A stretch of DNA of 64,000 bases. Origin: a virus (Duplodnaviria; Caudoviricetes). The stretch is from IMG/VR virus record IMGVR_UViG_3300028886_000045; one strand, written 5' to 3'. The notes below the pieces were generated by a model. That model did not search any database, was not told the DNA's origin, and worked only from the letters and a program-made list of their open reading frames with translations. This document shows positions 6,126-60,248 of this stretch, in pieces. Made by a program: the position numbers and the translations under genes. Position 1 is the stretch's first letter; each line of letters begins with the position of its first letter.

Positions 6126-6204
6126 AACTGAAAGTGGCGATTTTATGCCGTTGCCTTCGGCTCTACCAAGAAACGACCTTGTTTCTTATTACAATGCAAA
6201 GGTA
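6126..6204 (-). promoter_or_regulatory. Conserved early leader copy 1: TACCTTTG promoter plus pseudoknot (6136-6161)
   Basis: GCCG-AA-GGC-AA-CGGC-AUAAAAUC-GCC, 10 nt before AUG. Confidence 0.75.
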
Positions 6205-6250
6205 CAACAAATATTTGACATATACAAATTTCTTAACACTATTTAATAAT

Positions 6251-7084
6251 TTAGTTGGTATTTTCTTTGTATCGTTTTAGATACACGTCGGGGGTTTCGC
6301 CAAACCTATCCTTAAAGACTTTCGACAAAGTGGCTTTCATCTTTTCGTTCTTTTCCGTCACAATGCCGTTAGCCATTTTAAGTTTCAGTTCTTCGGGTAT
6401 GATACGCGCCTTTTTATCTGCCAACTTTCCTAAGTCCTTCAATTTGTTTGTATCATCCTTTATTCCGTGCCGTTTGCAGTACTCCTCCCTACTGATTCCG
6501 TCACGCTTTGCCTCTGCGTCCTTTCGTGCTTCTTCTTCACTTCTGATAGCATCCAACATCTGCGCACGTTCTTCGCGGAACTTATGCAATGATTTCGTTA
6601 TTGCAAGGTAGTAGGTGGTATCACCATAGAATTGCTTATATCGCGCTTGCTTAAAACGGCTTACAAACACCTTGATTTCATCTACCGACAAATCTTTGTT
6701 TTCTTCGACTATCGAATTTGCCAAATCGTCAATCTGAAAATCTGCCATTTTCGAGCCATCGACACCAAGTAGCGTAAACATAGACTTTAGCACCACGAAT
6801 AGGAACATATTGGAAGAACCCTTTCCGTATGTCATATCCAAATAAAGCAACGTAGGGGACTGACCCATACAAGCCTCGCGCAAATCATACTTTTGCGACT
6901 GCGTAAGCACACCCAAAGCACCTACATAGTGTGTTACACCATAGGCATCCGTCTGCCTTGCATCAAAGGACTCCACCGCCCCATATTTTCGTATGATTTC
7001 TTGCTTACGCCTTTGTCGCTTGCCTTCGAGCACTAAGTCTGTCGAGGTAGTTTGCGGAACTTTGCAAATCTCGTTCTGTTTCAT
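6251..7084 (-). CDS. Replication-module protein (possible helicase-loader / lambda P-like position)
   Basis: Follows the initiator-like gene; start refined to MKQNEICK. Confidence 0.55.
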   Translation of the reverse strand: MKQNEICKVPQTTSTDLVLEGKRQRRKQEIIRKYGAVESFDARQTDAYGVTHYVGALGVLTQSQKYDLREACMGQSPTLLYLDMTYGKGSSNMFLFVVLKSMFTLLGVDGSKMADFQIDDLANSIVEENKDLSVDEIKVFVSRFKQARYKQFYGDTTYYLAITKSLHKFREERAQMLDAIRSEEEARKDAEAKRDGISREEYCKRHGIKDDTNKLKDLGKLADKKARIIPEELKLKMANGIVTEKNEKMKATLSKVFKDRFGETPDVYLKRYKENTN

Positions 7085-7688
7085 ATTGTTTTCTTTCCTT
7101 TTCAGTCTGCATTTTACGATTCTTGTAATTACCCTCCAACACCTTAATAAAGTTGTTTGGTCTAAACATCCAATCAAAGCCGTAGGCTGTACCCGAAACG
7201 TAACCATTCATAAAGTCGCTTTCCGATGCGTTGTCAATGACAATCTTCACCGATGCCACGCCATAATCCTTGATTCTGCCACGCACCAACCCCTTGCGCT
7301 TTTCCGACATATCCTTAATCTGTGGGATTCCGCGCCCTTTCATTCGGTTGTTAAAGTATTGCAAAAGTTCATCCCAATCTACATATTCAACACCTTGTTT
7401 CGTGGCGATTTCCTCACCCTTTGGCTTTACCCTCAGAACATTCTTTTTCTTTCCGTACATCAATTCATCGTACTTCTGTATCTGACAAATCTTTAGGGTA
7501 TCGTCTGCCATTACAACAAAGCCTTTATCCACAAGGGCGTGAATTGTCGGACTTGTTCTTTCATCGCTGAATATTGACATAGGAATATCGGTTACATTAC
7601 CGTCTGCGTCCGAATTGCAAAGGAGATAGCAAAACATACTGAACTCCTTAGACTTTCCGAACATTGAATATAATTCTTTAAGAAACAT
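7005..7688 (-). CDS. Phage replication initiator / replisome organiser-like protein
   Basis: C-terminal FDWMFRPNNFIKVLEGNY motif typical of phage initiators. Confidence 0.75.
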   Translation of the reverse strand: MFLKELYSMFGKSKEFSMFCYLLCNSDADGNVTDIPMSIFSDERTSPTIHALVDKGFVVMADDTLKICQIQKYDELMYGKKKNVLRVKPKGEEIATKQGVEYVDWDELLQYFNNRMKGRGIPQIKDMSEKRKGLVRGRIKDYGVASVKIVIDNASESDFMNGYVSGTAYGFDWMFRPNNFIKVLEGNYKNRKMQTEKERKQYETERDLQSSANYLDRLSARRQATKA

Positions 7689-7710
7689 ACTTAAAAGGTT
7701 TTTTAGAAAG

Positions 7711-8142
7711 TTAGAATATAAATTTTTGGTGCAAATGCTTTGCTATTGACGGATGGGCATCAACCGTCATGTTTTCGTGCTTATAGTGCTCCAATATGCT
7801 TTGGATTTCCGCAAAAGGCGTATCACCATCCATTGAATAGAAACGCACGCTGTTACGCCCACCGTGTCGCTTATCTACCATTACAATCCATGACTTATCC
7901 CTTACATGGTGGTCAATCGCCACAATTTCGTTTTCAGAAAGTAAGTCAATCAACCTTCCATGTATCTTTAGGGTCTTTTCTACCCCATGCAAGGTTAAAT
8001 TCGCGTTATCTAACTTACCTTTCGTGGCTTGCACTTCATTCACCAAATTCTGCAAGGACTTCATTTCGTCTGCCATGCACCAACTTAGGAACTTATACGC
8101 CTTCCGTTTAGCATAACGCCTTAGAATTTCTTTTCCATTCAT
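7711..8142 (-). CDS. Hypothetical protein
   Basis: 143-aa ORF in operon. Confidence 0.7.
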   Translation of the reverse strand: MNGKEILRRYAKRKAYKFLSWCMADEMKSLQNLVNEVQATKGKLDNANLTLHGVEKTLKIHGRLIDLLSENEIVAIDHHVRDKSWIVMVDKRHGGRNSVRFYSMDGDTPFAEIQSILEHYKHENMTVDAHPSIAKHLHQKFIF

Positions 8143-8148
8143 ACATAT

Positions 8149-8343
8149 TTACTTTATTGGATGGATAACGTAATTAGTAGCAAAGAAATCGTCTAAATCC
8201 TCTTTTGCATAAAAGATAGTACCGTGTACCTTGCTATAAGGTATTTCGCCATTCATTCGTAGATTCTTCAAGAAATCCGAACCTACACCCAATTCCTTTT
8301 GCGCCTTTGCGTTACTCCACCACGTTTTTACACTTCTTGCCAT
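8149..8343 (-). CDS. HTH_17 / excisionase-like DNA-binding protein
   Basis: A..ELGV...FL..LR..G.IPYSKV.G.IFY..EDL pattern. Confidence 0.8.
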   Translation of the reverse strand: MARSVKTWWSNAKAQKELGVGSDFLKNLRMNGEIPYSKVHGTIFYAKEDLDDFFATNYVIHPIK

Positions 8344-8543
8344 TCCACTTTAGGCTCTACAACAGAAACGCCATAAAACTCATTCAACGCCCTTTCGCGG
8401 ATTTCCTTTGCAGTCTTGGAATGCCTTTTGAAACGCAAAGCCTCAAAGATTGCAACCCTATCATATCCGCTTGCTATCATTGCATCTGTCATTGACTTAT
8501 GCAACACAATTCGCTCTTGCATTTTAACAATCGGTCTTAACAT
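8328..8543 (-). CDS. Small putative DNA-binding (Cro-like) protein
   Basis: IFEALRFKRHSKTAKEIRERAL; first gene after a promoter with flanking palindromes. Confidence 0.55.
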   Translation of the reverse strand: MLRPIVKMQERIVLHKSMTDAMIASGYDRVAIFEALRFKRHSKTAKEIRERALNEFYGVSVVEPKVEWQEV

Positions 8544-8570
8544 TGTCTTTTTCCTTTCTTTTTTCGTTTG

Positions 8571-8646
8571 CAAAGTTAATAAAAATATTGGTATTGATAC
8601 CAATTTTATTGTTAATATTGTTTAATATGTTGGTAATCAATACCAA
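8571..8646 (-). promoter_or_regulatory. Promoter (TAACTTTG 8571-8578) with two palindromic operator-like sites
   Basis: ATTGGTATTGATACCAAT (8587-8604) and TTGGTAATCAATACCAA (8630-8646). Confidence 0.65.
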
Positions 8647-8657
8647 TACACGCCTTT

Positions 8658-9533
8658 TTACTCGTTAATTGGTTTTCTTGAACACACAACAACTTTCTTT
8701 TCCCTATCAGCCCCCTTAAACCAAGGACAATCGAAACATTGCTTAGAACCAACATTTACGATTTTGTTTTTGTACCCTCTCGTTTCGCGTGGGCATGGGG
8801 TTTCATTCACGTTATAGTTAATCCTTACACAATCGTTAGGGACTTCTATGTTATCAGTCGTAACGCTTTCCTCTTTGGATGGGGTAGCGGTTATTTTGGT
8901 TGTTTTATTTTCCTTCAGATACTTTTGCATTTCGGGCATAGTTGGAAACTTGAAACCATTCAATTCCGCGTACTCAATCCTTTCGCGCAACCTTATGTTA
9001 GAAACCTTTAGCGAGGTCACTTCTTTCTTTGCGCTTTCCATTGCTTCTATGCACCTTTGCGCACCCTCACTCTTTTCTTTGTGTGCCTTTATAATTGCTT
9101 TGCTATCCAATAAGTCCTTTTGCAACTTTTCGATTTCCGCGCTTTGCAACTTGATTTTCTCAGCGTGGGACGCACATAAATTTTCCTTTTCCGTTAAGGA
9201 TTTTTCCAATGCTTCAATCTTATCCCTTTTCTTCGTTTCGGAAAGTTGCAAGTTACTTATTATCGCACGCGCCCTTTCTGAAAGTGCATCATTGTTTGCG
9301 TTCTTCTGTGCATTCTGTGACTTCAACACCGCAATTTGTTCACGCAACTCTTTAATTGTTAAGTCGCGTTCACGCACGCCACTTAGGTATCGGTTGATTT
9401 CCGTTTCGTGTTTTTGCGCATTTTCTTGCACCCTTACACTCAATCTTTCCGCTTGCTCTTTATACTGCCTGTACCTATTCCACAACTCAGTAAAGAACAT
9501 TTCCGCTTGCTCTTCGTTTACGTTTATCTTCAT
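8658..9533 (-). CDS. Coiled-coil protein with C-terminal Cys-rich (Zn) domain
   Basis: Long heptad region; CP...VGS..CFDCPWF...VVC; start refined to MKINVNEE. Confidence 0.75.
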   Translation of the reverse strand: MKINVNEEQAEMFFTELWNRYRQYKEQAERLSVRVQENAQKHETEINRYLSGVRERDLTIKELREQIAVLKSQNAQKNANNDALSERARAIISNLQLSETKKRDKIEALEKSLTEKENLCASHAEKIKLQSAEIEKLQKDLLDSKAIIKAHKEKSEGAQRCIEAMESAKKEVTSLKVSNIRLRERIEYAELNGFKFPTMPEMQKYLKENKTTKITATPSKEESVTTDNIEVPNDCVRINYNVNETPCPRETRGYKNKIVNVGSKQCFDCPWFKGADREKKVVVCSRKPINE

Positions 9534-9549
9534 TGATTTTCTGCTTTTA

Positions 9550-10242
9550 TTAGAACAAAGACAACTGCCTTGCATCTTCACGCAATCGCCTTTCTGCTAT
9601 CTTACATAATTTTTCTTTCTTTTCGCTACCTATATACACACGCCCACCGCCTAATTGCTGAACTGCTAACGCTGTTGTACCCCCACCCATGAAGGGGTCG
9701 TAAACAACCCCATTTTGAGGACACGTTGAAAGTATCATACTCCGTACCATTGCAAGGGGCAAAGACGAATAGCCGTTTTTGTCCATTCGCACATCCCATA
9801 TATTCGACTTGTACGCGCTATTTTCCTTTCGGAAATATGGATAGTCACCCTTGTATAGCCAATATATGTATTCTGTTATAGGCGTATAATTATCATCTGC
9901 CTTTTCCAACGTGTTAGCCTTATCCCATACAATTATTTGATGTAACGGAAAGTCATAAACCCACGTTGGATGTATAAGCCTTTGAAACTTCATGTTATCC
10001 TTGTGGTTGTAATACATAGAACCATTCGGTTTCAACACGCGCATACATTCTTTGATAAATCGCCTTTGCCACGCCTCGTATTCCGTTGGCGTTATGCTAT
10101 CCTTTGGCGATTCTGAATACATCACGAACCTATACCATCCCTTGTTTGTCGGTGGTGACGCAATAATAAGGTCTATGGATTCATTCGCCATTCTTGACAA
10201 AGTTTCCATACAATCCTCATTATAAATCTTGTTTATTTCCAT
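9550..10242 (-). CDS. Beta-class DNA amino-methyltransferase (N6A/N4C), atypical SPPT motif, C-terminal QLSLF
   Basis: IYNEDC...SPPT...DPFMGGGTTA. Confidence 0.85.
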   Translation of the reverse strand: MEINKIYNEDCMETLSRMANESIDLIIASPPTNKGWYRFVMYSESPKDSITPTEYEAWQRRFIKECMRVLKPNGSMYYNHKDNMKFQRLIHPTWVYDFPLHQIIVWDKANTLEKADDNYTPITEYIYWLYKGDYPYFRKENSAYKSNIWDVRMDKNGYSSLPLAMVRSMILSTCPQNGVVYDPFMGGGTTALAVQQLGGGRVYIGSEKKEKLCKIAERRLREDARQLSLF

Positions 10243-10243
10243 A

Positions 10244-10966
10244 TCAGAATATCGTTTGTAACGAATTTTCGTATTCTATTCTTTTCATTGCGATTTTGTG
10301 GTAATCCTCATTCAATTCAAAGCCTATGAAATGTCGTTTTTCCTTCATGCACGCAATAGCGGTCGTACCACTACCCATGAAAGGGTCTAAAATCAAGTCA
10401 CCCTCATTCGTGCTATTTCGGATAAACCTTTGCATCAGTTCCAAAGGCTTGATAGAAGGATGCCCCCAAAGTTTCTTATCCTTATGGTTGATATACCCCA
10501 CCTCGTAGGTCTTTGCATCTTCATAATCCTTTGGATGCGTCTTACTGCCCTTGTGGAAAAACAGACAATACTCCGTGTCGCTTAGGTACTTGTTATAATA
10601 GGTAGGCAAAGCATTCTTCTTATGCCAACAGATAATTTCATACTTGCATTTCATTTCGCTTACATATATTCTGAAATAGTCTGCTATCTGTGCTTTGTTA
10701 CACCATATATAAGCGTTTATCTTTCCACCTTGCAACCTTTTGACCTCTTGGGCAAAGGCTTCCATATTGTAGCCATCGCGCAAATTGGCTACATCTAACT
10801 GCTTTAGCGAATCATTCAGTTTCTTAACCTTGTTTACGCTACCACCCCCATGATGCTTTTCAATGACATACGGTGGGTCTGTCACTATGCAGTCAATACT
10901 TCCGCTTTCGATTTGCTTCATTCCCTCAAAGCAATCCGCGTTATATATCCTATCAATTTCCAACAT
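10244..10966 (-). CDS. Beta-class DNA amino-methyltransferase, C-terminal LQTIF
   Basis: TDPPY, HPSIKP, DPFMGSGTT, GFELN. Confidence 0.95.
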   Translation of the reverse strand: MLEIDRIYNADCFEGMKQIESGSIDCIVTDPPYVIEKHHGGGSVNKVKKLNDSLKQLDVANLRDGYNMEAFAQEVKRLQGGKINAYIWCNKAQIADYFRIYVSEMKCKYEIICWHKKNALPTYYNKYLSDTEYCLFFHKGSKTHPKDYEDAKTYEVGYINHKDKKLWGHPSIKPLELMQRFIRNSTNEGDLILDPFMGSGTTAIACMKEKRHFIGFELNEDYHKIAMKRIEYENSLQTIF

Positions 10967-10968
10967 AA

Positions 10969-11715
10969 TTAAAACAAACTTAGTTGTGACCTTTCGGCTT
11001 TAATTCTTTGATATGCTTTTTTGTAGAACTTCTCGTTTAGTTCAAATCCGACAAAATGCCTATTTTCCTTCATACACGCAATCGCAGTAGAACCGCTCCC
11101 CATAAAAGGGTCTAAAATCGTATCGCCTTTGTCTGTGTTAAGTAGAACGAACTCACGGATAATCTGCACGGGTTTTTCCGTTGGATGGATTTTGGCTTTT
11201 CCGTTAATAGGCGCAACCTTCTTGACCCTACTATAAAGTTCATTGTTTGATACGCGCCTTAGTGCCGTGCCATAGTCGTAAACCCTTACTATGTATTCCA
11301 AATTCTGACTAAAACGATTATGGTTAATGATACTTAGCGGTTTCTCCCATACAAGAATACTGAACATATAGCCGTTATTCTCTGCCCACATTGCATAGTA
11401 GGGAACTTGCGTCTCCGAACAAAACATATAGGCATTCATAATCTTCATTTTCGGCTCTATCGCCTTCATCAGCCTATCTATGTGCTCCCCATCAAAGTCG
11501 CTCATATCGCCTATCATATCCCCCTCGTAGTTATACAATTCGGAATTTGAAAACCTACTTTCCGTATTGCATTGCTTACGCTGTGAATATGGCTTGCCGG
11601 GGGACTTCTTATGCCAATACGGTGGGTCGGTAATCACGCAATCAATACTTTTATCCGCGATTTCCTTTAACCCCTCCATACAATCCATATTGTATATGTT
11701 ATCCAATTCTAACAT
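10969..11715 (-). CDS. Beta-class DNA amino-methyltransferase, C-terminal QLSLF
   Basis: TDPPY, HPTEKP, DPFMGSGST. Confidence 0.95.
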   Translation of the reverse strand: MLELDNIYNMDCMEGLKEIADKSIDCVITDPPYWHKKSPGKPYSQRKQCNTESRFSNSELYNYEGDMIGDMSDFDGEHIDRLMKAIEPKMKIMNAYMFCSETQVPYYAMWAENNGYMFSILVWEKPLSIINHNRFSQNLEYIVRVYDYGTALRRVSNNELYSRVKKVAPINGKAKIHPTEKPVQIIREFVLLNTDKGDTILDPFMGSGSTAIACMKENRHFVGFELNEKFYKKAYQRIKAERSQLSLF

Positions 11716-11718
11716 AGT

Positions 11719-12492: not shown

Positions 12493-12495
12493 AGC

Positions 12496-12636
12496 CTAAA
12501 AATGATGAAAGTCCTTAAAAATATGTATCAGTCTTAAAAAGTAGAAACCGCAAACCATCAAAACAATCCCAATCAATCCGAATATGATGCCAACAGTCCA
12601 AAGTACCCACATGGGTACGAAAAAAGTAAATTCCAT
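12496..12636 (-). CDS. Small single-pass membrane protein (46 aa)
   Basis: Hand-translated MEFTFFVPMWVLWTVGIIFGLIGIVLMVCGFYFLRLIHIFKDFHHF; exactly fills the gap. Confidence 0.7.
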   Translation of the reverse strand: MEFTFFVPMWVLWTVGIIFGLIGIVLMVCGFYFLRLIHIFKDFHHF

Positions 12637-12650
12637 ATCTTTTATAGTTG

Positions 12651-14143: not shown

Positions 14144-14144
14144 A

Positions 14145-14330: not shown

Positions 14331-14351
14331 ATCCTATCTCCTTTCTTTAGC

Positions 14352-14401
14352 AAAAAACCGCCCACCAAGCCCTTTGAAAAAAAGGCAAAACGGTGGACGG
14401 G
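14352..14401 (-). terminator. Extended hairpin with U-tract
   Basis: CCGTCCACC...GGTGGGCGG followed by TTTTT on the minus strand. Confidence 0.5.
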
Positions 14402-17691: not shown

Positions 17692-17737
17692 CCAATGAAA
17701 TTAGTAACATAATTGGTTTTAAGGTTTAATTCTTGTG

Positions 17738-17769
17738 CAAAGATACATAAAACATTTGACATTACCAAC
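17738..17769 (-). promoter_or_regulatory. Leftward promoter for the erf/exo/ssb operon
   Basis: GTTG-20 nt-TATCTTTG on the minus strand. Confidence 0.6.
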
Positions 17770-19365: not shown

Positions 19366-19561
19366 CCTTGCGAATGGTCACGAAAAAACCGTGCGATTTT
19401 CTGCGATGACAATTTACAAAATCATAACACAAAAATTTTGTTGCAGAAAACCTAACACGGCTAATTCGTGGTATATTATGTATATTAAAGTATTCCACCT
19501 TAATGTTTATTTTTTATGTTATGTCACTTTGTGAGTGATTAATTTTGATTAATTGTCGATG

Positions 19562-19569
19562 CAAAGGTA
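19562..19569 (-). promoter_or_regulatory. -7 box TACCTTTG driving the wHTH gene
   Basis: Same promoter core as the early leaders but no pseudoknot. Confidence 0.6.
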
Positions 19570-19709
19570 CAAACTTTTATTGGTATATGCAAATTTTTTG
19601 ACAACTTTTTTGGTAAAAAACAAGAAAAAATTAGTGCGAAATATGTAAAGCACATAAATCGCACTACTGAACTAACAGATAATCAATATGTTATACAGAA
19701 AAAGTGATA

Positions 19710-23884: not shown

Positions 23885-24208
23885 TTACTGCAACATCAAC
23901 TCGGCTTTGTTGAAACTTCTCCAAGCCATCTTTTCGGTGTCCCAATAGGTCTGCAAGTGTGCGTAAGTACGACCTACACCCTTAACCTCACCGATAAGGT
24001 TCTGTTTAAGTGTACCGAATGCCCTACGGACTTCACCGTTGGCTTTCACAAAGTGAAACTCGACAACACCAACGAGCATCTTCTGACGCAGTTTGTAATT
24101 TGCCCAAGCCAAGCGCAAAGCCTCGCTTATTGACTTACCATTTACCTTGACCATTCTCCAAGCCTCTGACATTACAGACTTGATTGTGTTCTTGAAATTC
24201 TGTGCCAT
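23885..24208 (-). CDS. WYL_2 / Sm-like SH3 beta-barrel protein (DUF2693-like)
   Basis: VEFHFVKANGEVRRAFGTL...YWDTEK.AWRSF. Confidence 0.85.
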   Translation of the reverse strand: MAQNFKNTIKSVMSEAWRMVKVNGKSISEALRLAWANYKLRQKMLVGVVEFHFVKANGEVRRAFGTLKQNLIGEVKGVGRTYAHLQTYWDTEKMAWRSFNKAELMLQ

Positions 24209-24288
24209 AGTTATAAACGACTATTTTATACTCTTTGCTTGAGTTCAAAAGTTAATGTCTGTTGTTTCTTAATTACAATGCAAAGGTA
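24209..24288 (-). promoter_or_regulatory. Conserved early leader copy 2 (stem 2 degenerate)
   Basis: TACCTTTG...AAGAAACAA...ACUC-AAGCAAA-GAGU-AUAAAAUAGUC. Confidence 0.7.
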
Positions 24289-25742: not shown

Positions 25743-26111
25743 TTAACAATCAGCATAGATGTGCGTGAGCGATGTTCTAAGACCCGTTTCACGCTCGAAC
25801 AATCCCCTCAGTTGGTCGCAATAGATACCCTTGTACTCCTTGACTACCTTATCAGCCATTTTCTCCTCAATCTGTTCGCGTGTGTACTTAACGTACAAAT
25901 TCACGCTGAACTTCTGCCCCTTCTTAATGAACTGCACCGTGTAGGTGTCATCTGCATCAAGGATAACGCGCAAACGTGTAGCCTTTGACTTGTTACGCAT
26001 GAAATCCAACTGCAAGCCGTAACCCTTTTCGATTTCAATCATATTCTTTGCGCCTACCATTACAACGAAATGATTACCACCAATCTGTGAAAGAATTGTC
26101 TTTGCTATCAT
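25743..26111 (-). CDS. Conserved phage early protein
   Basis: IAKTILSQIGG..F.VMVGAKN...DTYTVQF...GIYCDQL. Confidence 0.8.
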   Translation of the reverse strand: MIAKTILSQIGGNHFVVMVGAKNMIEIEKGYGLQLDFMRNKSKATRLRVILDADDTYTVQFIKKGQKFSVNLYVKYTREQIEEKMADKVVKEYKGIYCDQLRGLFERETGLRTSLTHIYADC

Positions 26112-26186
26112 AACTTTTGTGACCTTGTTATTCTCTCGGTCGTGAGTTCTAAATTAACTTTGTTTCTTAATTACAATGCAAAGGTA
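26112..26186 (-). promoter_or_regulatory. Conserved early leader copy 3 (pseudoknot 26121-26147)
   Basis: ACUC-AC-GACC-GA-GAG-AAUAACAA-GGUC, 9 nt before AUG. Confidence 0.8.
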
Positions 26187-47277: not shown

Positions 47278-47565
47278 TTACTTTTTGTAAATCGGATATT
47301 CAACGATTGCCACACGCTTTCCACACCTTACGAGCCTTGGTAAATAGATGTCAAGTGCTGGTCGTGGGAAACAAAGGTATTTCATGCCATTCTTACGCTT
47401 TTTTTGCGTACACAACTTAATGACTTCTTTCACCTCCTTTATATCGTCTTCATAGACATCATAGAAATCATTATCCCTAAAAAGCATTATTACATTAGGG
47501 TTATCTTTCTTGAAATCTTCGTAATATTTCTTGATTGCGTTCTCGTTATTCTCCAAATTCTTCAT
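47278..47565 (-). CDS. Stand-alone MutS domain I-like protein
   Basis: Y..FK...P.VIMLFR.NDFYDVY.DD...FP..ALD.YL.RLV..GKRVAIVE. Confidence 0.85.
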   Translation of the reverse strand: MKNLENNENAIKKYYEDFKKDNPNVIMLFRDNDFYDVYEDDIKEVKEVIKLCTQKKRKNGMKYLCFPRPALDIYLPRLVRCGKRVAIVEYPIYKK

Positions 47566-47641
47566 ATTGCTTTTGGCTTTGTTATCCTCTCAGCCGTGAG
47601 TTCAAAGTTGTTATTTGTTTCTTATTTACATTGCAAAGGTA
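47566..47641 (-). promoter_or_regulatory. Conserved early leader copy 4 (pseudoknot 47575-47601)
   Basis: ACUC-AC-GGCU-GA-GAG-GAUAACAA-AGCC, 9 nt before AUG. Confidence 0.8.
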
Positions 47642-48626: not shown

Positions 48627-49238
48627 CTATTCGCGCCAATCGTCATAAATCTCGATATAGCCTTCATTTACCACGACCTTACCATATTTCTTAATGAAAT
48701 TCATAAGGTCTTCAAGGCTGTTAATTCTAACATACCAATCGTACTCTTCGCCTTCTTTGCGATAAGCCTCCTCGCATGGTTTAGTATCTGACCATGCACT
48801 TGTTCTTGATACTTTGTACTCTATACCCATATTGCTATTATCTTTGTCTTGTGACTTGTTATCGCTTGGTAACTCGTCATAATACCAACCATCACGATGA
48901 TACACGTTGAACACTTGCTCATCAACAGAAACGTAACAATATCCATCTTCGTCACGTTGTGATTCTAAGTCTTTCAGACTGAAAACGCCCTCAGTCTTTA
49001 CACCCTTTGGGTCTATTCTGTCACCGAACAAACGCCAATCCCCATTGTCCAACTCTTCACCCTCATAGATGAACCACACATAAGAATCCAACGCAGTTCT
49101 AAGTTTGAGCAAAACGCGCTTTTCTTTCTGCCACTTCGTGCTTCCAATAGGTGAAAGGTGGAGTGCCATCTGTGAACGCATTGGGATTTCAAGGCTCTTC
49201 TTCATACCTCTGTGCTTGATTTCTTTCATACTCTTCAT
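48627..49238 (-). CDS. DUF2958-like domain fused to a second small phage domain
   Basis: WFIYEGE...GDWRLFG...EGVFSLKDLES; start refined to MKSMKE by the leader. Confidence 0.7.
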   Translation of the reverse strand: MKSMKEIKHRGMKKSLEIPMRSQMALHLSPIGSTKWQKEKRVLLKLRTALDSYVWFIYEGEELDNGDWRLFGDRIDPKGVKTEGVFSLKDLESQRDEDGYCYVSVDEQVFNVYHRDGWYYDELPSDNKSQDKDNSNMGIEYKVSRTSAWSDTKPCEEAYRKEGEEYDWYVRINSLEDLMNFIKKYGKVVVNEGYIEIYDDWRE

Positions 49239-49319
49239 ATGCTTGGTGGTCTTGTTATGCTCTTGACCGTGAGTAAAAAGGTGAAACAACTTGTAATTCT
49301 TAATTACAATGCAAAGGTA
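49239..49319 (-). promoter_or_regulatory. Conserved early leader copy 5 (pseudoknot 49248-49274)
   Basis: ACUC-AC-GGUC-AA-GAG-CAUAACAA-GACC, 9 nt before AUG. Confidence 0.8.
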
Positions 49320-53200: not shown

Positions 53201-56200
53201 CCTATCCGTAATATCGGCAATCATCTCCTCATTCTTTTGGCGGTTGTTCCTATTCTGCTCCGCGATTTCGTCCAAAGCCTTTAGGTCTGCTTTCAGTTTC
53301 GCGATTTCTTGCGCACGCTTATCTTCGTCATCCTTGTAGGTTTCATAAACCTCCTTGAATGACTTAGCCTCTTCTGCAATCAGTTGTGCATTAAGTTGTG
53401 CGTTAAGCGCAATCTTCTTTTTCTTGTAGTTGAGGTAATCTTCGTAGTATTTGCCACCCTTTGCAAACTCGCCCGTTCCGCTTTCCAAAGCGTTCTTATC
53501 AAATTCTACTGCGCCCCTACCTTGAACCCCTGCGGACTTCACCTTGCCGTTTTTGTCCTTTTTCTCGTCCTTTGCCTTACGCTCCTTATGGTCGGGGTCT
53601 ATATTCCACAACTTCTCGATTTCGTCTTGCAATGCCTTGACTGCATCCTCATTCTTTGCCTTTAGGTCTGCAATCCTATCATTCACATTCTTGTTACGTT
53701 GCAAGCCGATTTTCTTCTCTGCCTCTTCGACTTCGTTCTCGGCTTTTAACATCGCGTCAATCTGACATTGTGCAATATCCTTTTCGATTTCCCTTAGTTT
53801 CTTCTTCCACCTTTCGGCTTGCGCTTCACGTTCCTTACGCATATCCCTTAACGCCTTTTCACGCGCCAACTTATCGTTTTCAGCCGTAGCCTTTGCGTCC
53901 TTTTCGGCATTCTTCTTTTCCTCTGTCGCGGTCTTTGCCTTTTCCTCTGCTTCTGACTTTCGCTTATCAACTTCTTGCTGTGCGTAATCAGCCGCCAACC
54001 CATATTGTTGTGCCTTTTGCAAGTGGTCTTTCCTTTGCGCGTCTGTCAAATTGCCGTTGTTCGCGCGTTCTGCATGGAATGAAGCATTTTTTCGTAGGGC
54101 ATTCACCGTACCTTGTGTTTCCTTTCCATTACCCACGTTAAACTTGGTTTTCATCCATTGTGGCAAATCTTCAACCTTGGTTGTAAGTTCAAGTTCAATC
54201 TTGTACTTCTTAGCGATATGTGCGAGTTCATCGTTAAGGTCTTTGACTGACATTTTGGAAAGACGCGCCCTTTCCGCAAATTGCTTTTGCGTTGAGGAAA
54301 GCCTTTCGGCTTCATAGTTAGCCTTTCTTTGCGCTTCTGCCGCACGCCAATTCGCCTCGCTAACGTCTTCCGTTACATCCTTAATCGTTGAAATAGTTCT
54401 AAAGTAATCCCTATATGCGGTTTGCATCGTTCTGATTTCGGATGCTGTGTACCCCATAGCCTTACCCAATCTTTCAACATCAGCATTAGCCTCGACTAAT
54501 TGGTGTGCTTGTTTCTTTAGTTGGGAAATTTCGTTTCCATTCTTAGCCTTGATGTCCTTTCTTTCACTTAGCGATTTGCCCGACAAATCGGGGTGTCTTA
54601 GTACCTCAATCCTATCCATGATTTTCTTGTAGTCTGCCAAAGACTTCTCATCAACCATGCCCGCGAGACTTGCACTAATAGCACCACCGCCTTGCAATTT
54701 TTCAAGGCTTTCCGCTAATTGGTTTTTCGCTTCTTCTACACTTTTATCCTCAACTTCGCCAATCTTTGTCTTGACATCAATTTCGCGCCTTATTTCCTTT
54801 TCTTGCTCCATTTTGGCAATAAGTTCATCACGCTTATTGTTAAGGGAGTCCAAAGTTTCCTTTTCGTTTTCCGCGCTTATGCCATACTCCTTCATCAATC
54901 GGTTAAGGTTATCGTATGCGTCCTTATACACCTTGGTATCGGGGGGCGCAGCATTCAAGGCGAAATAATCAGCCTTTACGGTTTGCTTTTCCTTGCTTGC
55001 ATTCTTTTCAAAATCGCTATTCACCTTTGCGATTTCCTTATTGTATTCCTTTGCAAGTTTCGTTGCCTCGTCCTCATAGGTGATAATCTTATAAAGTCCA
55101 TAGCCAACGGCGGCGATGGCTGCGGCAGCGAGCACATAAGGGTTAGCCAACATATCCAAACCTGTCATTGCCATAACAGCCTTGAATTTGCTCGCCTTTC
55201 CTATGTTCTTTCCCATTTCCACGCCAACTATACGCTCCGTTGTCAATCGTTGCTTTCCGTGCGCTTCTAACAATGCGTCCTCTGTCACTTGCTTTTCTTT
55301 CAAAAGGACTTGCTTTTGATTTTCAGCCGTGACAATCTTTTCTTGTATCAATATGGCTTTCGCCTCTGCCTTATCCAACCTTGCAATATTACGCTTTGAA
55401 GCATTCAAAGCAACTTGCTTTTCACATTCGGCTACTATTTGCGCTTGTGTGACTGCTTGTTTGCGTAATGTCAAAAGTTCTTCGTCTGCCTTTGCTATCT
55501 TCGCATCGCGCACCGCCAACTCTGCCATTTGGGACGCATCTGCCTTAGTAGCGTGCTTTCTGATTTCCAATACGGCTTGTTCCCTTTCGGCTTCTAACTG
55601 CGCCCTAATCAACATAAGTTGCTCCGCCGCCATCGTCTGTGCAGTAGCCTTCTGTGTATTCATTTCCACTTGAATACCTGCTTGTTTCTGCATTTCCAAT
55701 GTCATCCTTTCTGCAAGTGCCACCTCTTGCGCTTGCATACTATTATTGAATGCCACAGATACGCTATTATAGGCACTTTCACCCAAACGCAAAGCCTTAT
55801 ATGTGGCAATAACACCGATAAGTGCCTCCGCTCCGTGTATCACGCTTTCGATTTCTTCCCTTGACCAATCGCCCGCGCCCGCGACAAACTCCCTTAGTTT
55901 ACCAATGCCCTCGGTAACATTATCAATGAAATCCTTTGCAATTCCATCGCTTTCTTGGAACGTAAGTATAAAGCCTTCCCATGCAGATTGCAACATCTTT
56001 ATAGAACCCGCGAGGTTATTTGTCATATTTGCAGACATACCCCCCGTGGTGTCTTGGTTCATCTGTGCGCTTATCTTATCACGCAATTCAAGGATTTTTT
56101 GGCTTTCTTGTATAAGGGTAATGAACTGAGTACCACCGCGCGGCCCAATAAGTTTCATACCCTTACCCGTGTCCAAATTCTTCAACTTTTCCAAACCTGC

Positions 56201-57280
56201 CACAAATTCATCCAATGAATGCACGTTTTCCATGCCTTCAATCTTTCCTTGTGCCACCTTGGTAAAAATGTTCCTAAGTGATGTCATAGCCGTGGAAGCC
56301 TCCACACCCGAATCTTTCAACTTACCAAACAAAGCCAAGACATCCTCAATATTCAAGCCTATGGAATGAGCCATCGGTCCGAAAGTTGCGAGGTTATCGC
56401 GTATCATTCGGAAATCAAGTGCCGAAGACATAGTAGCCGAAGCCATAGCATTTGTGTACTTGATAGCCATTTCTTCATAGTCTTTTTCAGCCACGCCAAA
56501 CATTCTAAGCGCAGCACCCGTGGTTGATGCCGCCTCGTCCAACGATGCGCCCGTGGCTTGTGCAAAGTGCAACACAGGCTCTTCCATTGCGTGAATATCA
56601 GAAGCCGAAAAACCTAACTTTGACAAAGCAATCTGCAATTCGGTTACTTGTGAAGCCGTGAACACCGTTTTTCTACCTAACTCCTCGGCTGTGTCCTTAA
56701 ACCCTTGCATTTGTTCGTCTGTTGCGCCCAATATGGCTTTAAGTTGGGAATTTGCCGTTTGGAAAGACATAATTGTATTCTTTGCCTCGCCAATCAGTCC
56801 AACGGCTGAGTAAAGTCCACGCAAAGCAAGGTTGGCAGCGGTGTAGTTCGCTATGAAATTCTTCATACCGATAACAAAACGCCCCGTCGAATCAGCAGCA
56901 CCATCCATAGCCTTTGCAAACATATCCGCTTGACCGCGTGCGTTACGCATCCCTTGCGCCATCGTTATTCCCAAACTTGTTGCCCTTTGCACCGCATTCG
57001 AGTAACCATTCAAACCGCCCGTTGCTTGACGGAAATTTATGTTTAGTGTAGGTGCTTGTATCGCATTGCCTATACTTGCACCTGCTTGTGCTGCCGCTTG
57101 CACCAACGTATTCAGTTCCCCCTTTGCCTTTGCAAGTTGGTTTTGCCACATAGTGACATCAACTTGTGGGGTCAGAACCAAATTCACGTTTTTTAGTTTC
57201 TGCTCCAAACTATTGATTTCCTTGATAAGTGCCGTTAGTTTGGTGTAGTCCGTTTCTACTGTGAAATATAGATTTGCCAC
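50279..57280 (-). CDS. Tape measure protein (TP901-type core)
   Basis: 2333 aa, helical; LGRKTVFTASQV..LQ..LSKLGF, L.SAWEG; GTG start. Confidence 0.92.
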   Translation of the reverse strand: MANLYFTVETDYTKLTALIKEINSLEQKLKNVNLVLTPQVDVTMWQNQLAKAKGELNTLVQAAAQAGASIGNAIQAPTLNINFRQATGGLNGYSNAVQRATSLGITMAQGMRNARGQADMFAKAMDGAADSTGRFVIGMKNFIANYTAANLALRGLYSAVGLIGEAKNTIMSFQTANSQLKAILGATDEQMQGFKDTAEELGRKTVFTASQVTELQIALSKLGFSASDIHAMEEPVLHFAQATGASLDEAASTTGAALRMFGVAEKDYEEMAIKYTNAMASATMSSALDFRMIRDNLATFGPMAHSIGLNIEDVLALFGKLKDSGVEASTAMTSLRNIFTKVAQGKIEGMENVHSLDEFVAGLEKLKNLDTGKGMKLIGPRGGTQFITLIQESQKILELRDKISAQMNQDTTGGMSANMTNNLAGSIKMLQSAWEGFILTFQESDGIAKDFIDNVTEGIGKLREFVAGAGDWSREEIESVIHGAEALIGVIATYKALRLGESAYNSVSVAFNNSMQAQEVALAERMTLEMQKQAGIQVEMNTQKATAQTMAAEQLMLIRAQLEAEREQAVLEIRKHATKADASQMAELAVRDAKIAKADEELLTLRKQAVTQAQIVAECEKQVALNASKRNIARLDKAEAKAILIQEKIVTAENQKQVLLKEKQVTEDALLEAHGKQRLTTERIVGVEMGKNIGKASKFKAVMAMTGLDMLANPYVLAAAAIAAVGYGLYKIITYEDEATKLAKEYNKEIAKVNSDFEKNASKEKQTVKADYFALNAAPPDTKVYKDAYDNLNRLMKEYGISAENEKETLDSLNNKRDELIAKMEQEKEIRREIDVKTKIGEVEDKSVEEAKNQLAESLEKLQGGGAISASLAGMVDEKSLADYKKIMDRIEVLRHPDLSGKSLSERKDIKAKNGNEISQLKKQAHQLVEANADVERLGKAMGYTASEIRTMQTAYRDYFRTISTIKDVTEDVSEANWRAAEAQRKANYEAERLSSTQKQFAERARLSKMSVKDLNDELAHIAKKYKIELELTTKVEDLPQWMKTKFNVGNGKETQGTVNALRKNASFHAERANNGNLTDAQRKDHLQKAQQYGLAADYAQQEVDKRKSEAEEKAKTATEEKKNAEKDAKATAENDKLAREKALRDMRKEREAQAERWKKKLREIEKDIAQCQIDAMLKAENEVEEAEKKIGLQRNKNVNDRIADLKAKNEDAVKALQDEIEKLWNIDPDHKERKAKDEKKDKNGKVKSAGVQGRGAVEFDKNALESGTGEFAKGGKYYEDYLNYKKKKIALNAQLNAQLIAEEAKSFKEVYETYKDDEDKRAQEIAKLKADLKALDEIAEQNRNNRQKNEEMIADITDRSKAVDEKEKEKKKRIQEVEIQLQGADFKKGEKERLSKELQTLKAELQQIASEKIELDVQLKDANLQKGIIEKSDELSEKAQDKIALTLDNKSDNLEPKKIEYLKQYGDKQQQLQATELEHIKRVNDLRIKGANEWEKVSEEKRYRKEKDEVVANNSLEEIKKDPNYLSAMEDPQYVTTEGLDTLYSKLKNAKAALTDLPPDQLQAIADLMNKISEEVTSRNPFKTWKEGVKEMAEAKVEVKDTAKEFADAQKQVNWLSGLSGEESKAYYESELKGREQEKDIATNVREQAEQDYANAMESGTAEEQAEAQQRVEDALAREREAIIAVTEAQEDLNRAKQGIPTNKLIDAQDKLTKSENRYKNALNKEKTANAKVKKSRAEVGKSLSSLGSAMNDLGEQVNEFGGDAGRYIKDIGNMVSSVGAAMTAVSTVTDTSISTIEKASAILAIISAAIQLATAAADLIGLGKDDSGYENAKGEYEELISIWDELISKKKEYLSESWGSEIKEVGKEIERIYNNEIEATRTLAQERLGAGASIGSHSYGYRMNRDLKEYYNKIGISDIRDLTMMSGEQLQKIKEDQSLFWAKLDGDFQEYLEKIIECDEAIKENDKAMREQVAQMSFDDMYGNFVDTLMDMEASASDFTDDLTEKFTKALLSNEIGALYKDKLQQWYDDYSKKLTDSGGKMSQAEVEKFRKRYEDMVQEAMQKRDQIADLTGYKQVSEQEGTTKGFEGMSQDTADELNGRFTALQTSNEVIARNSTLLAERVDTIMSMMAEKANTALSKGATFEVEVDNDTDNTENANVVPTLDAISDYIKKMYESVNDLSVVLKAYNQEIAERQNATPNTTKSEKKDEEVSVGKHSAEVTEARKRDNETETVTEFFDRYAEEVAKIAESERNRFESSASLSESVSLNTSLQGLVSEIVTQRSIAEDTRNLLAQSYLVLQNIETNTGDVVEPIKRMADEMDRMRRQMEKL

Positions 57281-57530
57281 GTTTCTTGAATTTTAATGAA
57301 ATACAAATTTTGACACAAAGATAATCTTTATATTTGGTACAACACACACTTGCAATTTGTTATTCTTCACTTATTCGCTAATGAAAACTAACACGCTTTG
57401 TTTGTTCGCTATATTCCTAAAATGTGACACTTTCAGAAAAATAATACCAACTTTTACACACGTTTTAATAACTTTCGTATCATTTTCGTTTGTATAAATT
57501 CAAAAAATAACCTAATTTCTACCTTTTGGC

Positions 57531-57561
57531 TTTGTTGTTTGTGTTTTTTTCCGTAACTTTG
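57531..57561 (+). promoter_or_regulatory. Plus-strand promoter with no downstream ORF
   Basis: TTTG-19 nt-TAACTTTG. Confidence 0.55.
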
Positions 57562-57566
57562 CAGAA

Positions 57567-57655
57567 TCTTAATTACTCCTCCACTACCCTTTGGTGTGGG
57601 GGAACTTAAAAGGTTTGGAGACGCACCGTCCGTGAGGGATAGTGCGTTTCTTTTG
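57567..57655 (+). ncRNA. Candidate ~90-nt small RNA
   Basis: Promoter, GC-rich hairpin, GUGA-loop terminator with U-tract, no AUG. Confidence 0.45.
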
Positions 57656-57721
57656 TCTATACACAGAAAATGCGCCACCCCCTAAAGGATGACGCACCAA
57701 CTATATAAAACAACCAATTAA

Positions 57722-57916
57722 CTAAAGTTCGCCATAACAAGAAAACTCTTCTTTGTGGTACATACTACGGCTATAACTATGAAAGGTTTCACGAGCCTTT
57801 TCCGACTTCGCCTCGTTCTCCCATTGTGCCACAATATCCCATTGGCGATTATCCATTTTTGGCACAATATTCAAACGCTCTTCGTCTGTCTTGTACTTAC
57901 TTGCATCTATCATCAT
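57722..57916 (-). CDS. Hypothetical protein
   Basis: 64-aa ORF in early island. Confidence 0.65.
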   Translation of the reverse strand: MMIDASKYKTDEERLNIVPKMDNRQWDIVAQWENEAKSEKARETFHSYSRSMYHKEEFSCYGEL

Positions 57917-57936
57917 ATTGCTTTGGTCTTAAAAGG

Positions 57937-58437
57937 TTAATCAATAAAGAAACCGATTACGGTGGTGATACCATCCTTATCTGTTGATTTTGACGAATAA
58001 AGTTCGTCATAATCACAGAAAGCACCATCAGCCTCCGAAATGACAAAATGGCAATCGTCTTCCAACTTTTCGATTTCTTCAAGTGTTTCTTGCAAATCCT
58101 TGATTTTGCTTATGGTTTCTTCCATTTCGCAACTATTGGTAACTGCCTTCAAGTTGTCACACATAGGCATTAGGCATTCTTTCAAGAATTTGCCGTTATC
58201 ACCTTTGTACCAACCCCTACGACCCTCAGCCATATTCTCGTCCTTACGAAAATACTTATCCACATCACAAAGGTATGTACCCACGTTGTCATCTACCAAC
58301 AGAAAGCAACACGGCTTAAAACCGCTATTCTTCAAGTCTTCAAGACTATCACATAAAGCCTCCAAACCTATAATGGCTTTGCGGTTATCAACCTTGATTT
58401 GTGGGTAGCCTCTGAAATCATCAATGTCGTACTTCAT
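57937..58437 (-). CDS. Acidic hypothetical protein
   Basis: 166-aa ORF. Confidence 0.75.
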   Translation of the reverse strand: MKYDIDDFRGYPQIKVDNRKAIIGLEALCDSLEDLKNSGFKPCCFLLVDDNVGTYLCDVDKYFRKDENMAEGRRGWYKGDNGKFLKECLMPMCDNLKAVTNSCEMEETISKIKDLQETLEEIEKLEDDCHFVISEADGAFCDYDELYSSKSTDKDGITTVIGFFID

Positions 58438-58474
58438 ACTTCTAATACTTAAAAGGTTTAACTTATTATACTTG

Positions 58475-58618
58475 TTACTTCTTATTATCGAAATTCGTTG
58501 TTACAACCACATTCGGCAATAGTCTTTGCATATCATCCGCATACATTCTTGCCTCACGCTTTGTACGAAATCCCCTATGGAGGTTTCCGTTAAAGAATAC
58601 TACATATCCTTTTTTCAT
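58475..58618 (-). CDS. Small hypothetical protein (47 aa)
   Basis: Hand-translated MKKGYVVFFNG...GFRTKREARMYA. Confidence 0.6.
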   Translation of the reverse strand: MKKGYVVFFNGNLHRGFRTKREARMYADDMQRLLPNVVVTTNFDNKK

Positions 58619-58631
58619 ATTTGCGCCCTCC

Positions 58632-58841
58632 TTACTTATTTGCCCTAACGCAATTATTATACATTATCTGCAAGGCTTGTTTGCGTGTGTAACCGCAACT
58701 TGACCCCTTCAACGTGTCCCATAGTTGGCTATCATGCTCGGTATATGATATATATCTGTTACGATATTCTACGACCACATGGTAACTACCATAACCCTTC
58801 CAACTTACTGAAACCTTGTTTTCTAATTGTGCTAAAGTCAT
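58632..58841 (-). CDS. Hypothetical early protein
   Basis: First gene after leader copy 6. Confidence 0.75.
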   Translation of the reverse strand: MTLAQLENKVSVSWKGYGSYHVVVEYRNRYISYTEHDSQLWDTLKGSSCGYTRKQALQIMYNNCVRANK

Positions 58842-58919
58842 ATCCTTTGTGGCTTTGTTATTCTCTTAGCCGTGAGTTCTAATTGATTAACTTTGTTTCT
58901 TAATTACGATGCAAAGGTA
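58842..58919 (-). promoter_or_regulatory. Conserved early leader copy 6 (pseudoknot 58851-58877)
   Basis: ACUC-AC-GGCU-AA-GAG-AAUAACAA-AGCC, 9 nt before AUG. Confidence 0.8.
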
Positions 58920-58974
58920 CAAAAAATATTTGTAATATGCAAATTTTTTGCCAACTTTTTTTCAAACTTTTTTC

Positions 58975-59012
58975 AAAAAAAATTGGTACGCTATCCTCAC
59001 GGACAACGTACC
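58975..59012 (-). terminator. Terminator (GUGA tetraloop)
   Basis: GGTACGTTGTCC-GTGA-GGATAGCGTACC followed by T-tract. Confidence 0.65.
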
Positions 59013-59135
59013 CAAACTCATAAGATGAATAATATCACACTATATCAGTAATTTCTTATATTCCTTACCTTTTTGGTAAAAAGGACGCATCCATGTTTCA
59101 GAATGCGCCCCTAACAAGTATAATGAAGAGAACAC

Positions 59136-59291
59136 CTATAACGAAACCTTAACGAAAACATCATTTCCGATATTTTCAATAGCATCAATCCTTGCTATTC
59201 GCTTGGATTCGCCAACTGTTACATATAGCCGACCGCCTTTTATCGGTTTAAGAAACTCCTTCAGTTCGCTAACCTTATAGTACGGATTCAT
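59136..59291 (-). CDS. Small hypothetical protein (51 aa)
   Basis: Hand-translated MNPYYKVSELKEFLK... Confidence 0.55.
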   Translation of the reverse strand: MNPYYKVSELKEFLKPIKGGRLYVTVGESKRIARIDAIENIGNDVFVKVSL

Positions 59292-59583
59292 TGCTTTTCT
59301 GCTTTTTGTTGTTGAACAACGCTTTTGGGTAAGTCCAACCGATTATCTCGTTTTGCTTTGCATAAGCCTCGTATGCGCTTGTTGGTATGGTCTTTATGCG
59401 TGGCTCATACTTTGTCTTTATCGCAATTACGATTGTCTTTGTCTTTGCGGTTTGTGGCTCGGTCTTCTGCCATACGCAACTTCTCGCTGTCTTTGTGGCA
59501 TAGACAAAAGCATCTTCCATTTCTTCGATTGTGTAACTTTCCTTTTTCTTATCCTTGATATATTCGTAAAATCTTTTGTTCAT
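59275..59583 (-). CDS. Hypothetical protein (DUF551-like), paralog of 24682-25008
   Basis: EY...K..Y..E....AF...VWQ...IIGWT. Confidence 0.7.
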   Translation of the reverse strand: MNKRFYEYIKDKKKESYTIEEMEDAFVYATKTARSCVWQKTEPQTAKTKTIVIAIKTKYEPRIKTIPTSAYEAYAKQNEIIGWTYPKALFNNKKQKSNESVL

Positions 59584-59714
59584 TTTCCTTTTCCTTTCTT
59601 AATTTCTTTATGAATGTTATTCAACTTATCCGCAATTTCTTCAAGCGCATTGCGTATTTCCTTTAGAACAAATACCATACTTATAATGGCACTACACAAA
59701 ATTACCTCAAACAT
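59580..59714 (-). CDS. Small membrane-anchored protein
   Basis: MFEVILCSAIISMVFVLKEIRN...; internal ATG of ORF 59580-59792. Confidence 0.55.
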   Translation of the reverse strand: MFEVILCSAIISMVFVLKEIRNALEEIADKLNNIHKEIKKGKGK

Positions 59715-59960
59715 TGCGGTGTCTTTTTTTCTATTTTCTTTGGTGTGGTGGGCAGTTTGGATGCCTACTACCGTACCGCCCACCGTGACCAAATACCTAA
59801 AAGTGATAATATGAAATTTCCTACTTGAAAATTGCCAAAGAAAACCACATTATGCCTATCATTACAATAGAATAGCAAACTGCGATAACGTCTTCTTTAT
59901 CGGCATTCTTTATGTCGTTTATTATATCCTTCATAACTTTACGCTTTTATCGGTTAGTAA

Positions 59961-60173
59961 TTACTGAAATGCTACCATTTCGTTAGCCAATCCAATCCAT
60001 TTCTCCGCTTTCTTTCCGAAAACTGACAACTGATTAGCGATGTCCTTTAAGTCGTTCTTCTGAACCTTGCTTAATGGCTTGCTAACCATATTGCTTAGAT
60101 GAAAGTAATAGTCGATTGCATCAACTAAACCATTAAAGCGTGACTCTGCGATTTGCTTTAAGTTCTGTTTCAT
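59961..60173 (-). CDS. Hypothetical early protein
   Basis: First gene after leader copy 7. Confidence 0.7.
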   Translation of the reverse strand: MKQNLKQIAESRFNGLVDAIDYYFHLSNMVSKPLSKVQKNDLKDIANQLSVFGKKAEKWIGLANEMVAFQ

Positions 60174-60248
60174 TCTTGTTAATGGTCTTTTTATTCTCTT
60201 AACCTTGAGTTCTAAATTGTTTTGTTTCTTAATTACAATGCAAAGGTA
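60174..60248 (-). promoter_or_regulatory. Conserved early leader copy 7 (pseudoknot 60184-60210)
   Basis: ACUC-AA-GGUU-AA-GAG-AAUAAAAA-GACC, 10 nt before AUG. Confidence 0.78.

Follow-up and report, generated by a model that had tools for sequence, protein, structure and literature searches.

Multiple copies of a small RNA pseudoknot, each lying a short and nearly fixed distance ahead of a start codon, are distributed through a 64-kb stretch of phage DNA (referred to here as the window) that represents the reverse strand of positions 114343-178342 of IMG/VR virus record IMGVR_UViG_3300028886_000045. The complete record spans 178,667 bp, is estimated to be 96% complete, and encodes a terminase, a portal, a major head protein and a 2333-aa tape-measure protein; hence its source is a large tailed phage. 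A first-pass annotation of the window had described seven leaders sharing such a structure, all on the minus strand. Each of these sites was recovered where it had been placed, with the same order of parts: a promoter with its -7 box, about 15 conserved first-transcribed nt, a variable spacer, a 26-nt segment, a further 9-10 nt, and an ATG. Five of the seven fit the canonical form, a sixth diverges from it with its geometry intact, and the remaining one, already singled out as degenerate, is without stem 2. The count of seven, on the other hand, proved to be a marked underestimate of the abundance of the element in the genome as a whole.

The canonical knot comprises a 3-bp stem 1 (S1), a 2-nt loop (L1), a 4-bp stem 2 (S2), a second loop of 2 nt (L2), the 3' strand of stem 1 (S1'), an A-rich loop of 8 nt (L3) and the 3' strand of stem 2 (S2'), for a total of 26 nt; the crossing of its two helices makes this an H-type pseudoknot. 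A covariance model (R1), built from 24 copies (alignment A2), detects 28 copies at E<1e-3 in the 178,667-bp genome, all of them on the coding strand, and recovers the five canonical copies of the window with scores of 44.6-57.9 bits. Scanning the whole genome with the core pattern gave 19 occurrences on the coding strand, none on the other strand and none in a reversed control; in the window, five occurrences were seen where shuffled sequence would be expected to yield 0.10. Generic enumeration of pseudoknots was too noisy in this AT-rich DNA.

The strongest evidence for the fold comes from covariation, which was assessed in an alignment of 38 copies from this genome and from a related phage described below (relative A; alignment A4), and in the 26 copies of this genome by themselves (alignment A1). 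In A4, 100% of the 266 stem cells can pair, compared with 86.2% when shuffled and 17-47% when the partners are slid out of register. Double changes account for 53 cells against 16.5 expected, and compensatory change is seen in four of the seven pairs. The corresponding values for A1 are 97.3% of stem cells paired, versus 84.3% shuffled and 18-44% slid, with double changes in five of the seven pairs. Over the 38 copies, the middle pair of S1 occurs as U-A (24), C-G (11) or A-U (3), and three pairs of S2 alternate, A-U with G-C or C-G with U-A; RNAalifold recovers S2 unguided. The stem substitutions listed in the first-pass annotation are thus correct, and its interpretation of the segment as a cis-acting RNA agrees with the covariation of both crossing helices and the confinement of all copies to the coding strand. 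The signal becomes much stronger once all copies are included. We consider it very likely that the knot is a real RNA structure.

The loops behave differently from the stems: 9 of 12 loop positions are invariant in the 24 copies of A2, whereas the stems vary, and in the 38-copy A4 alignment eight of the 12 are invariant and the others nearly so. Each helix taken singly is weak (means of -2.4 and -4.1 kcal/mol), and by analogy with other minimal knots, stability probably depends on contacts between loops and helices or on a binding partner. A search of the whole transcribed strand gave no antisense partner of the conserved loop. A 9-nt identity between L3+S2' and a universal 16S segment near helix 44/45 was also considered, and was dropped because the S2' portion covaries, leaving a 6-mer only.

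Relative A was identified through a 330-aa protein of the phage in which an HTH_17 domain is joined to an RNA polymerase alpha-CTD-like domain; a homologue sharing 45% identity with this protein is encoded on contigs from ENA and Logan that measure up to 188 kb. In the approximately 40 kb examined, R1 finds ten distinct copies of the knot, each directly before a called gene. Six knot-led genes could be paired with orthologues between the two phages (38-65% protein identity); the knot is kept in all six, at the same distance, and in five of them S1 and/or S2 show compensatory differences. One such pair has CUC/GAG with GGCU/AGCC in the present phage and CCC/GGG with GGUC/GACC in relative A; another has CAC/GUG versus CCC/GGG. 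The HTH_17/alpha-CTD-like protein itself (genome 101311-102303; L074:1311-2300) may have as its target the A-rich element that lies ahead of the phage promoters; relative A encodes two paralogues (L346:7777-8694 and 10001-10951), one of which is knot-led.

The second defining property of the element is its tie to the start codon. The distance from the 3' edge of the knot to the AUG is 9 nt in 31 of the 38 copies, 8 nt in four and 10 nt in three, while the sequence of this spacer is variable; the Shine-Dalgarno (SD)-like placement originally ascribed to the knot therefore holds for the full set. The distance from promoter box to ATG, by comparison, ranges over 13 nt (58-71 nt), and four copies (genome 3658, 63996, 73286 and 73661) have no promoter and lie a few nt past the stop codon of the preceding open reading frame (ORF). 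The tight distance to the AUG, the loose distance to the promoter and the existence of promoter-less copies together argue that the element is tied to the start codon. Two leaders of relative A contain an out-of-frame AUG 4 nt past the knot that opens only 6-8 codons, with the real gene beginning at the canonical distance. Nested-fold partition functions give a mean unpaired probability of 0.6-0.8 for positions -9 to 0. The AUG and the 9-nt spacer are thus predicted to stay single-stranded, the knot leaving the start codon unhidden, which argues against a start-occluding switch. From these properties, the knot is probably a cis-acting element whose job concerns initiation at the adjacent AUG.

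Individual copies in the window, all on the minus strand, illustrate both the constancy of the layout and the exchange of stem sequences. Copy 7 (60184-60209; genome 118130-118163; R1 45.2 bits) has S1 CUC/GAG and S2 GGUU/GACC, including one G-U pair, and lies 10 nt from the AUG of a 70-aa ORF (59961-60173), downstream of a -7 promoter box of the Bacteroidota TAnnTTTG type at 60239-60248. The same S1 recurs in the four other canonical copies, each 9 nt from its AUG: copy 6 (58851-58876; S2 GGCU/AGCC; 57.0 bits; -7 box 58910-58919) leads a 69-aa ORF (58632-58841); copy 5 (49248-49273; S2 GGUC/GACC; 44.6 bits; -7 box 49310-49319) leads a 203-aa ORF (48627-49238); copy 4 (47575-47600; S2 GGCU/AGCC; 50.4 bits; -7 box 47632-47641) leads a 95-aa ORF (47278-47565); and copy 3 (26121-26146; S2 GACC/GGUC; 57.9 bits; -7 box 26177-26186) leads a 122-aa ORF (25743-26111). 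Copy 2 (24218-24243; -7 box 24279-24288; 107-aa ORF 23885-24208) retains S1 CUC/GAG and has no complementary stem 2, in keeping with its score of only 11.9 bits (E 2.6). Copy 1 (6136-6161; -7 box 6195-6204; 77-aa ORF 5892-6125) goes undetected by R1, its stems being different: a 4-bp S1 (GCCG/CGGC) and a 3-bp S2 (GGC/GCC), 10 nt from the AUG. As its arrangement (4-2-3-2-4-8-3) preserves the 26-nt geometry, copy 1 is a probable diverged member of the family.

The genes preceded by the knot are small and mostly without recognisable relatives. Thirty knot-led ORFs encode proteins of 58-203 aa, nearly all orphans, and domain matches are limited to MutS_I (two proteins), WYL_2 (one), DUF2958 (one) and weak matches to other DUFs; assignment of the window ORF at 47278-47565 as one of the two knot-led proteins consisting of MutS domain I alone is a guess only. 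Judged from their sequences, these genes look like an accessory or host-takeover class, the label of early genes given to them in the first-pass annotation being putative. The genes of the phage all rely on promoters of Bacteroidota style, in which a -33 TTTG and an A-rich upstream element accompany a -7 box of the TAnnTTTG type. Of some 53 promoters of this type in the genome, 24 are followed by a canonical knot, in a promoter-leader module of about 120 bp that is repeated about 24 times, and two by the divergent forms represented by window copies 1 and 2. The remainder drive tRNAs, small RNA (sRNA)-like units or ordinary short A-rich leaders, and among these structural genes, tRNA and sRNA-like units no knot was found; the leader of the structural operon (genome 111995), for example, has the promoter and no knot.

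Several other transcription units under this promoter type were also observed. The phage carries five tRNAs (Met-CAT, Val-AAC, Arg-CCT, Leu-CAA and Gln-TTG; genome coordinates 9007-9080, 19525-19599, 77527-77599, 90631-90712 and 91008-91079), at least two of which (Met-CAT and Val-AAC) are driven directly by it. Two further promoters of the knot-leader type, at window 19560-19569 and 17736-17745 on the minus strand, have no ORF start within about 150 nt and may represent non-coding transcripts or decayed copies; the leader at 19560-19569 forms a small hairpin followed by an A-rich tract, without stem 2. Outside the window, genome 58.9-59.8 kb (L071:18900-19800), just upstream of the knot-rich region, contains three promoter units that look like sRNA genes: after each of them comes a hairpin and a T-run, and no ORF.

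How such an element might influence initiation is suggested by the peculiarities of the host phylum, the Bacteroidota. According to two reports, ribosomes of Bacteroidia ignore SD sequences, the 3' tail of 16S being held by bS21, bS18 and bS6 (PMC7797042, PMC9976891). In Flavobacterium johnsoniae, the region from -20 to +20 is normally unstructured, and A residues at -3, -6, -12 and -13 aid initiation (PMC6847099). The tight spacing of the phage knot points to a geometric relation with the initiating 30S subunit, and it is on this ground that we favour a role in which the knot docks or positions the 30S as a ruler, a mechanism to which we assign a probability of roughly 40%. The knot would occupy positions of about -35 to -10, counted from the AUG, in the mRNAs of a defined class of small accessory genes, and would act in cis. 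Once folded, it would be unable to enter the mRNA exit channel of the 30S, and would instead park on the platform where an SD/anti-SD helix would lie, a site that is unused in Bacteroidota because of the sequestration of the anti-SD tail by the three proteins named above. So placed, the knot could recruit the 30S and/or set its register, bringing the AUG 9 nt downstream into the P site. A more specific and somewhat more tentative proposal is that a triplex-stabilised knot serves as a structural substitute for the SD helix in its empty site, an internal ribosome entry site (IRES)-like selector of start sites that would grant chosen phage mRNAs a privileged initiation independent of the SD, with different phage lineages having evolved different knots for the same job.

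A number of observations weigh against the proposed docking or ruler mechanism, which is drawn from sequence comparison and predicted folds. The knot places paired G and C residues at -13 to -10 and structure from -35 to -10, the opposite of the pattern favoured by the host (PMC6847099), so that it could equally damp translation. The structural genes, which are highly expressed, do without it. Relative B (introduced below) and other Bacteroidota phages carry different leader structures, and such turnover between phages is more easily explained by a lineage-specific partner than by the conserved ribosome. The near-invariant loops would fit specific recognition as well as tertiary folding, and the weakness of each stem by itself means that folding in vivo is not assured without a partner.

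Much of this converges on a close rival, possible though doubtful in our estimation, in which the knot is a translational operator shared among accessory or early mRNAs and bound by a phage-encoded or induced host RNA-binding protein that switches them jointly; precedents would be T4, where RegA acts on many early mRNAs, and rpsO, on whose pseudoknot S15 traps the 30S. The class-specific distribution of the knot over some 28 small orphan genes, and its absence from structural genes, tRNA and sRNA-like units, is in accord with a regulon of this kind, as is a lineage-specific occurrence: the R1 knot was found only in this phage and relative A, and leader types differ in relative B and in other Bacteroidota phages. 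The marginal stability of the knot by itself would also suit a protein-bound element. Invariance at 9 (A2) or 8 (A4) of 12 loop positions in the face of variable stems has the appearance of a protein-binding signature; however, the same loop conservation would be needed by a triplex-stabilised minimal knot. Moreover, an operator has no need of a spacing as tight as 8-10 nt, and no regulator of a familiar type is recognisable in the phage. Genes for bS21, CsrA and S1-domain proteins were not found in its genome, and a search for RegA (PF01818) gave no match there, nor did it give one in control genomes; the lack of a recognisable RegA, CsrA or S1-domain protein is in any case weak evidence.

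It is improbable that the knot is primarily a stabiliser or processing mark of mRNA, shielding the start region from ribonucleases or defining processed 5' ends. Its occurrence near transcript 5' ends and between cistrons, and a compact architecture with an A-rich loop like that of the mechanically stable luteovirid frameshift knots, are consistent with such a function. A nuclease block would not require 9 +/- 1 nt to the AUG, however, and the distance to the 5' end varies by 13 nt, leaving some 30-40 nt of leader upstream of the knot unprotected. Still harder to sustain is a riboswitch-like sensor, a minimal aptamer resembling preQ1-I that would read a global small-molecule signal for many genes. 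In topology and size the element matches the smallest aptamers known, being an H-type knot whose 3' loop is A-rich and which lies beside a start site, and the loops are invariant; yet a ligand sensor is very unlikely ahead of approximately 28 orphan genes that are unrelated and share no metabolic theme, and in addition S1 is merely 3 bp, the AUG is unoccluded in either fold, and Rfam offers no match at E<=10. Finally, the possibility that the knot is the by-product of a functionless promoter-leader cassette of about 120 bp, repeated about 24 times by recombination or bound as DNA by a protein, fits the small number of S2 haplotypes (about five), which allows for some cassette exchange, but is already largely refuted by covariation (266 of 266 stem cells paired, 53 double changes), by compensatory differences between orthologues at 38-65% protein identity, by the promoter-less copies, by the absolute coding-strand bias, and by the expectation that a DNA-binding protein would select sequence rather than complementarity.

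The distribution of the knot beyond these two phages was addressed by several searches. No INPHARED phage was matched when 16 kb of the sequence was compared by megablast. Pattern scans of IMG/VR gave only single matches per contig, which are taken as chance because either the stems are not fully complementary or no ATG lies at the proper distance; one group of loci (L012) and locus L017 were weak look-alikes with no start codon nearby and were set aside. JGI metagenome contigs and GTDB genomes gave 0 and then 4 pattern matches, none with both stems, and scanning with the upstream promoter element brought up one repeated element, which is unrelated. Relatives identified by the portal protein (50% identity) are (pro)viruses of 60-73 kb in which the knot is absent, and R1 found no match among 63 relatives identified by the helicase.

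Leader structures of other kinds were encountered in the course of these comparisons. Relative B (L350), a more distant phage at 39% identity, uses another leader type, a covarying hairpin with a conserved start-proximal stretch: twelve of its leaders show a hairpin of 6-7 bp with a 4-nt loop, and a near-invariant 12-nt stretch ending in ATG, present at intercistronic starts too. The helicase relatives (L282-L344; for example L282:9712-9820) contain a different and larger candidate leader pseudoknot located 17-19 nt before the ATG, in which the loop of a 6-7 bp hairpin is able to pair with a conserved downstream stretch. At least 120 IMG/VR loci (L087-L206, mostly contigs of 60-130 kb from dataset 3300045988) share the -7 box and the first 15 transcribed nt of the present phage; most of their leaders go on to an invariant hairpin of 4 bp, an A-rich tract of 8 nt and 3 nt with the potential to pair with the loop of that hairpin, the ATG or GTG following 8-9 nt further on. 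This layout is like that of the knot, but the sequences are invariant, and the pairing is hence a candidate only; R1 gave no match in the first 100 of this gut-phage group (L087-L186). If these candidates and those of the helicase relatives hold, start-proximal leader knots would be general and the R1 family one instance of them. Within the phage itself, the leader at genome 98792 first resembled a hairpin with a U-run; it is a separate, larger knot and was kept outside the R1 family. This separate knot (genome 98820-98895, L068; L345:6400-6495) lies 29 nt upstream of an orthologous 294-aa gene and consists of about 6+6 bp here and 4+4 bp in relative A, with compensatory differences.

With respect to named families, Rfam yielded no match at the gathering score for the window and none at E<=10 for ten leaders, as the first-pass annotation had surmised, and nothing of the sort came up for Bacteroidota phages in full-text searches of the literature. 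A published catalogue lists upwards of 10,000 candidate RNAs of viruses (Fremin et al. 2023, PMC10690425). Measured against Rfam, the knot stands as a new cis-RNA family, so far uncatalogued, whose general kind is known, and it makes a good candidate for a means of steering translation that has yet to be described. How start codons are found in Bacteroidota without SD pairing is only partly understood, and the knot gives a tractable handle on the problem, and bears as well on how Bacteroidota phages compete for ribosomes: a 26-nt element with natural compensatory variants and a fixed 9-nt spacing, present or absent among genes with the same promoter type. Should it recruit or position ribosomes, it would constitute a new initiation signal and an expression part for engineering of Bacteroides and Prevotella; should it be an operator, it would mark a regulon of about 28 accessory genes and point to an RNA-binding regulator yet to be found. 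Under either reading, the knot merits an Rfam-style family.

Among known systems, preQ1-I aptamers and luteovirid frameshift knots come nearest to the phage knot in architecture. Of the two, the preQ1-I riboswitch (RF00522) is likewise among the smallest of H-type knots, and it too has an A-rich 3' loop and lies directly ahead of a start site. Its S1 is about 5 bp as opposed to 3 bp, and there is no covariance-model match; the phage knot, in addition, has a 9-nt spacer between S2' and the AUG with no SD to occlude, precedes genes unrelated to queuosine, and occurs in dozens of copies per genome. Frameshift knots of the beet western yellows virus (BWYV) type have a nearly identical geometry of about 26-28 nt, with a 2-nt L1, short stems, and an A/C-rich loop of 7-8 nt that, in BWYV, forms a minor-groove triplex. 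These lie downstream of a slippery site within the coding region of RNA viruses, where they stall elongating ribosomes, whereas the phage knot lies upstream of the AUG; 24 of its 28 copies have no upstream ORF and the four intercistronic copies no slippery site.

In genomic pattern, the closest counterparts are the Start-Associated Sequences (SAS) and the ESAS repeats found in Cluster K mycobacteriophages (PMC3203893). A linear motif of 13 bp with an SD core defines SAS, in contrast to the covarying pairs and lack of an SD in the phage knot, and the inverted repeats of ESAS are without the RNA-type compensatory changes that the knot displays. The PeSL (promoter-early stem-loop) cassettes of T4-type phages are also repeated and flank small novel early ORFs in plastic regions of the genome; their stem-loops are terminators beside promoters, thought to drive recombination. 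The phage knot differs in being locked to the start codon and in occurring without a promoter as well.

In position and likely logic, the nearest parallels are T4 translational control and the rpsO/S15 system. Leader elements of T4 also control translation: RegA represses many early mRNAs through sites in their start regions, and gene 32 has a pseudoknot in its 5' leader. RegA sites, however, are unstructured and overlap the AUG, and the gene 32 knot serves one gene, that of an ssDNA-binding protein, from a position far upstream of a long unstructured A/U tract, rather than 8-10 nt from the starts of many small orphans. Since defining features of each of these systems are lacking, the knot appears to belong to none of them; what characterises the R1 family is a pair of crossing helices with compensatory change, located 8-10 nt from a start codon and on the coding strand only. 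The rpsO mRNA, too, has a pseudoknot in its initiation region, reportedly shown by Marzi and colleagues in 2007 to sit on the 30S platform and to govern accommodation of the start codon. There, a single autoregulated gene is involved, the knot itself takes in both SD and start codon, and its action goes together with SD pairing; the phage knot is present in about 28 copies, with no SD, with the AUG outside the knot and no r-protein gene downstream, and in a host phylum without SD pairing. By analogy, rpsO is nevertheless the best mechanistic analogue of the phage knot, whether it docks the 30S or serves as an operator.

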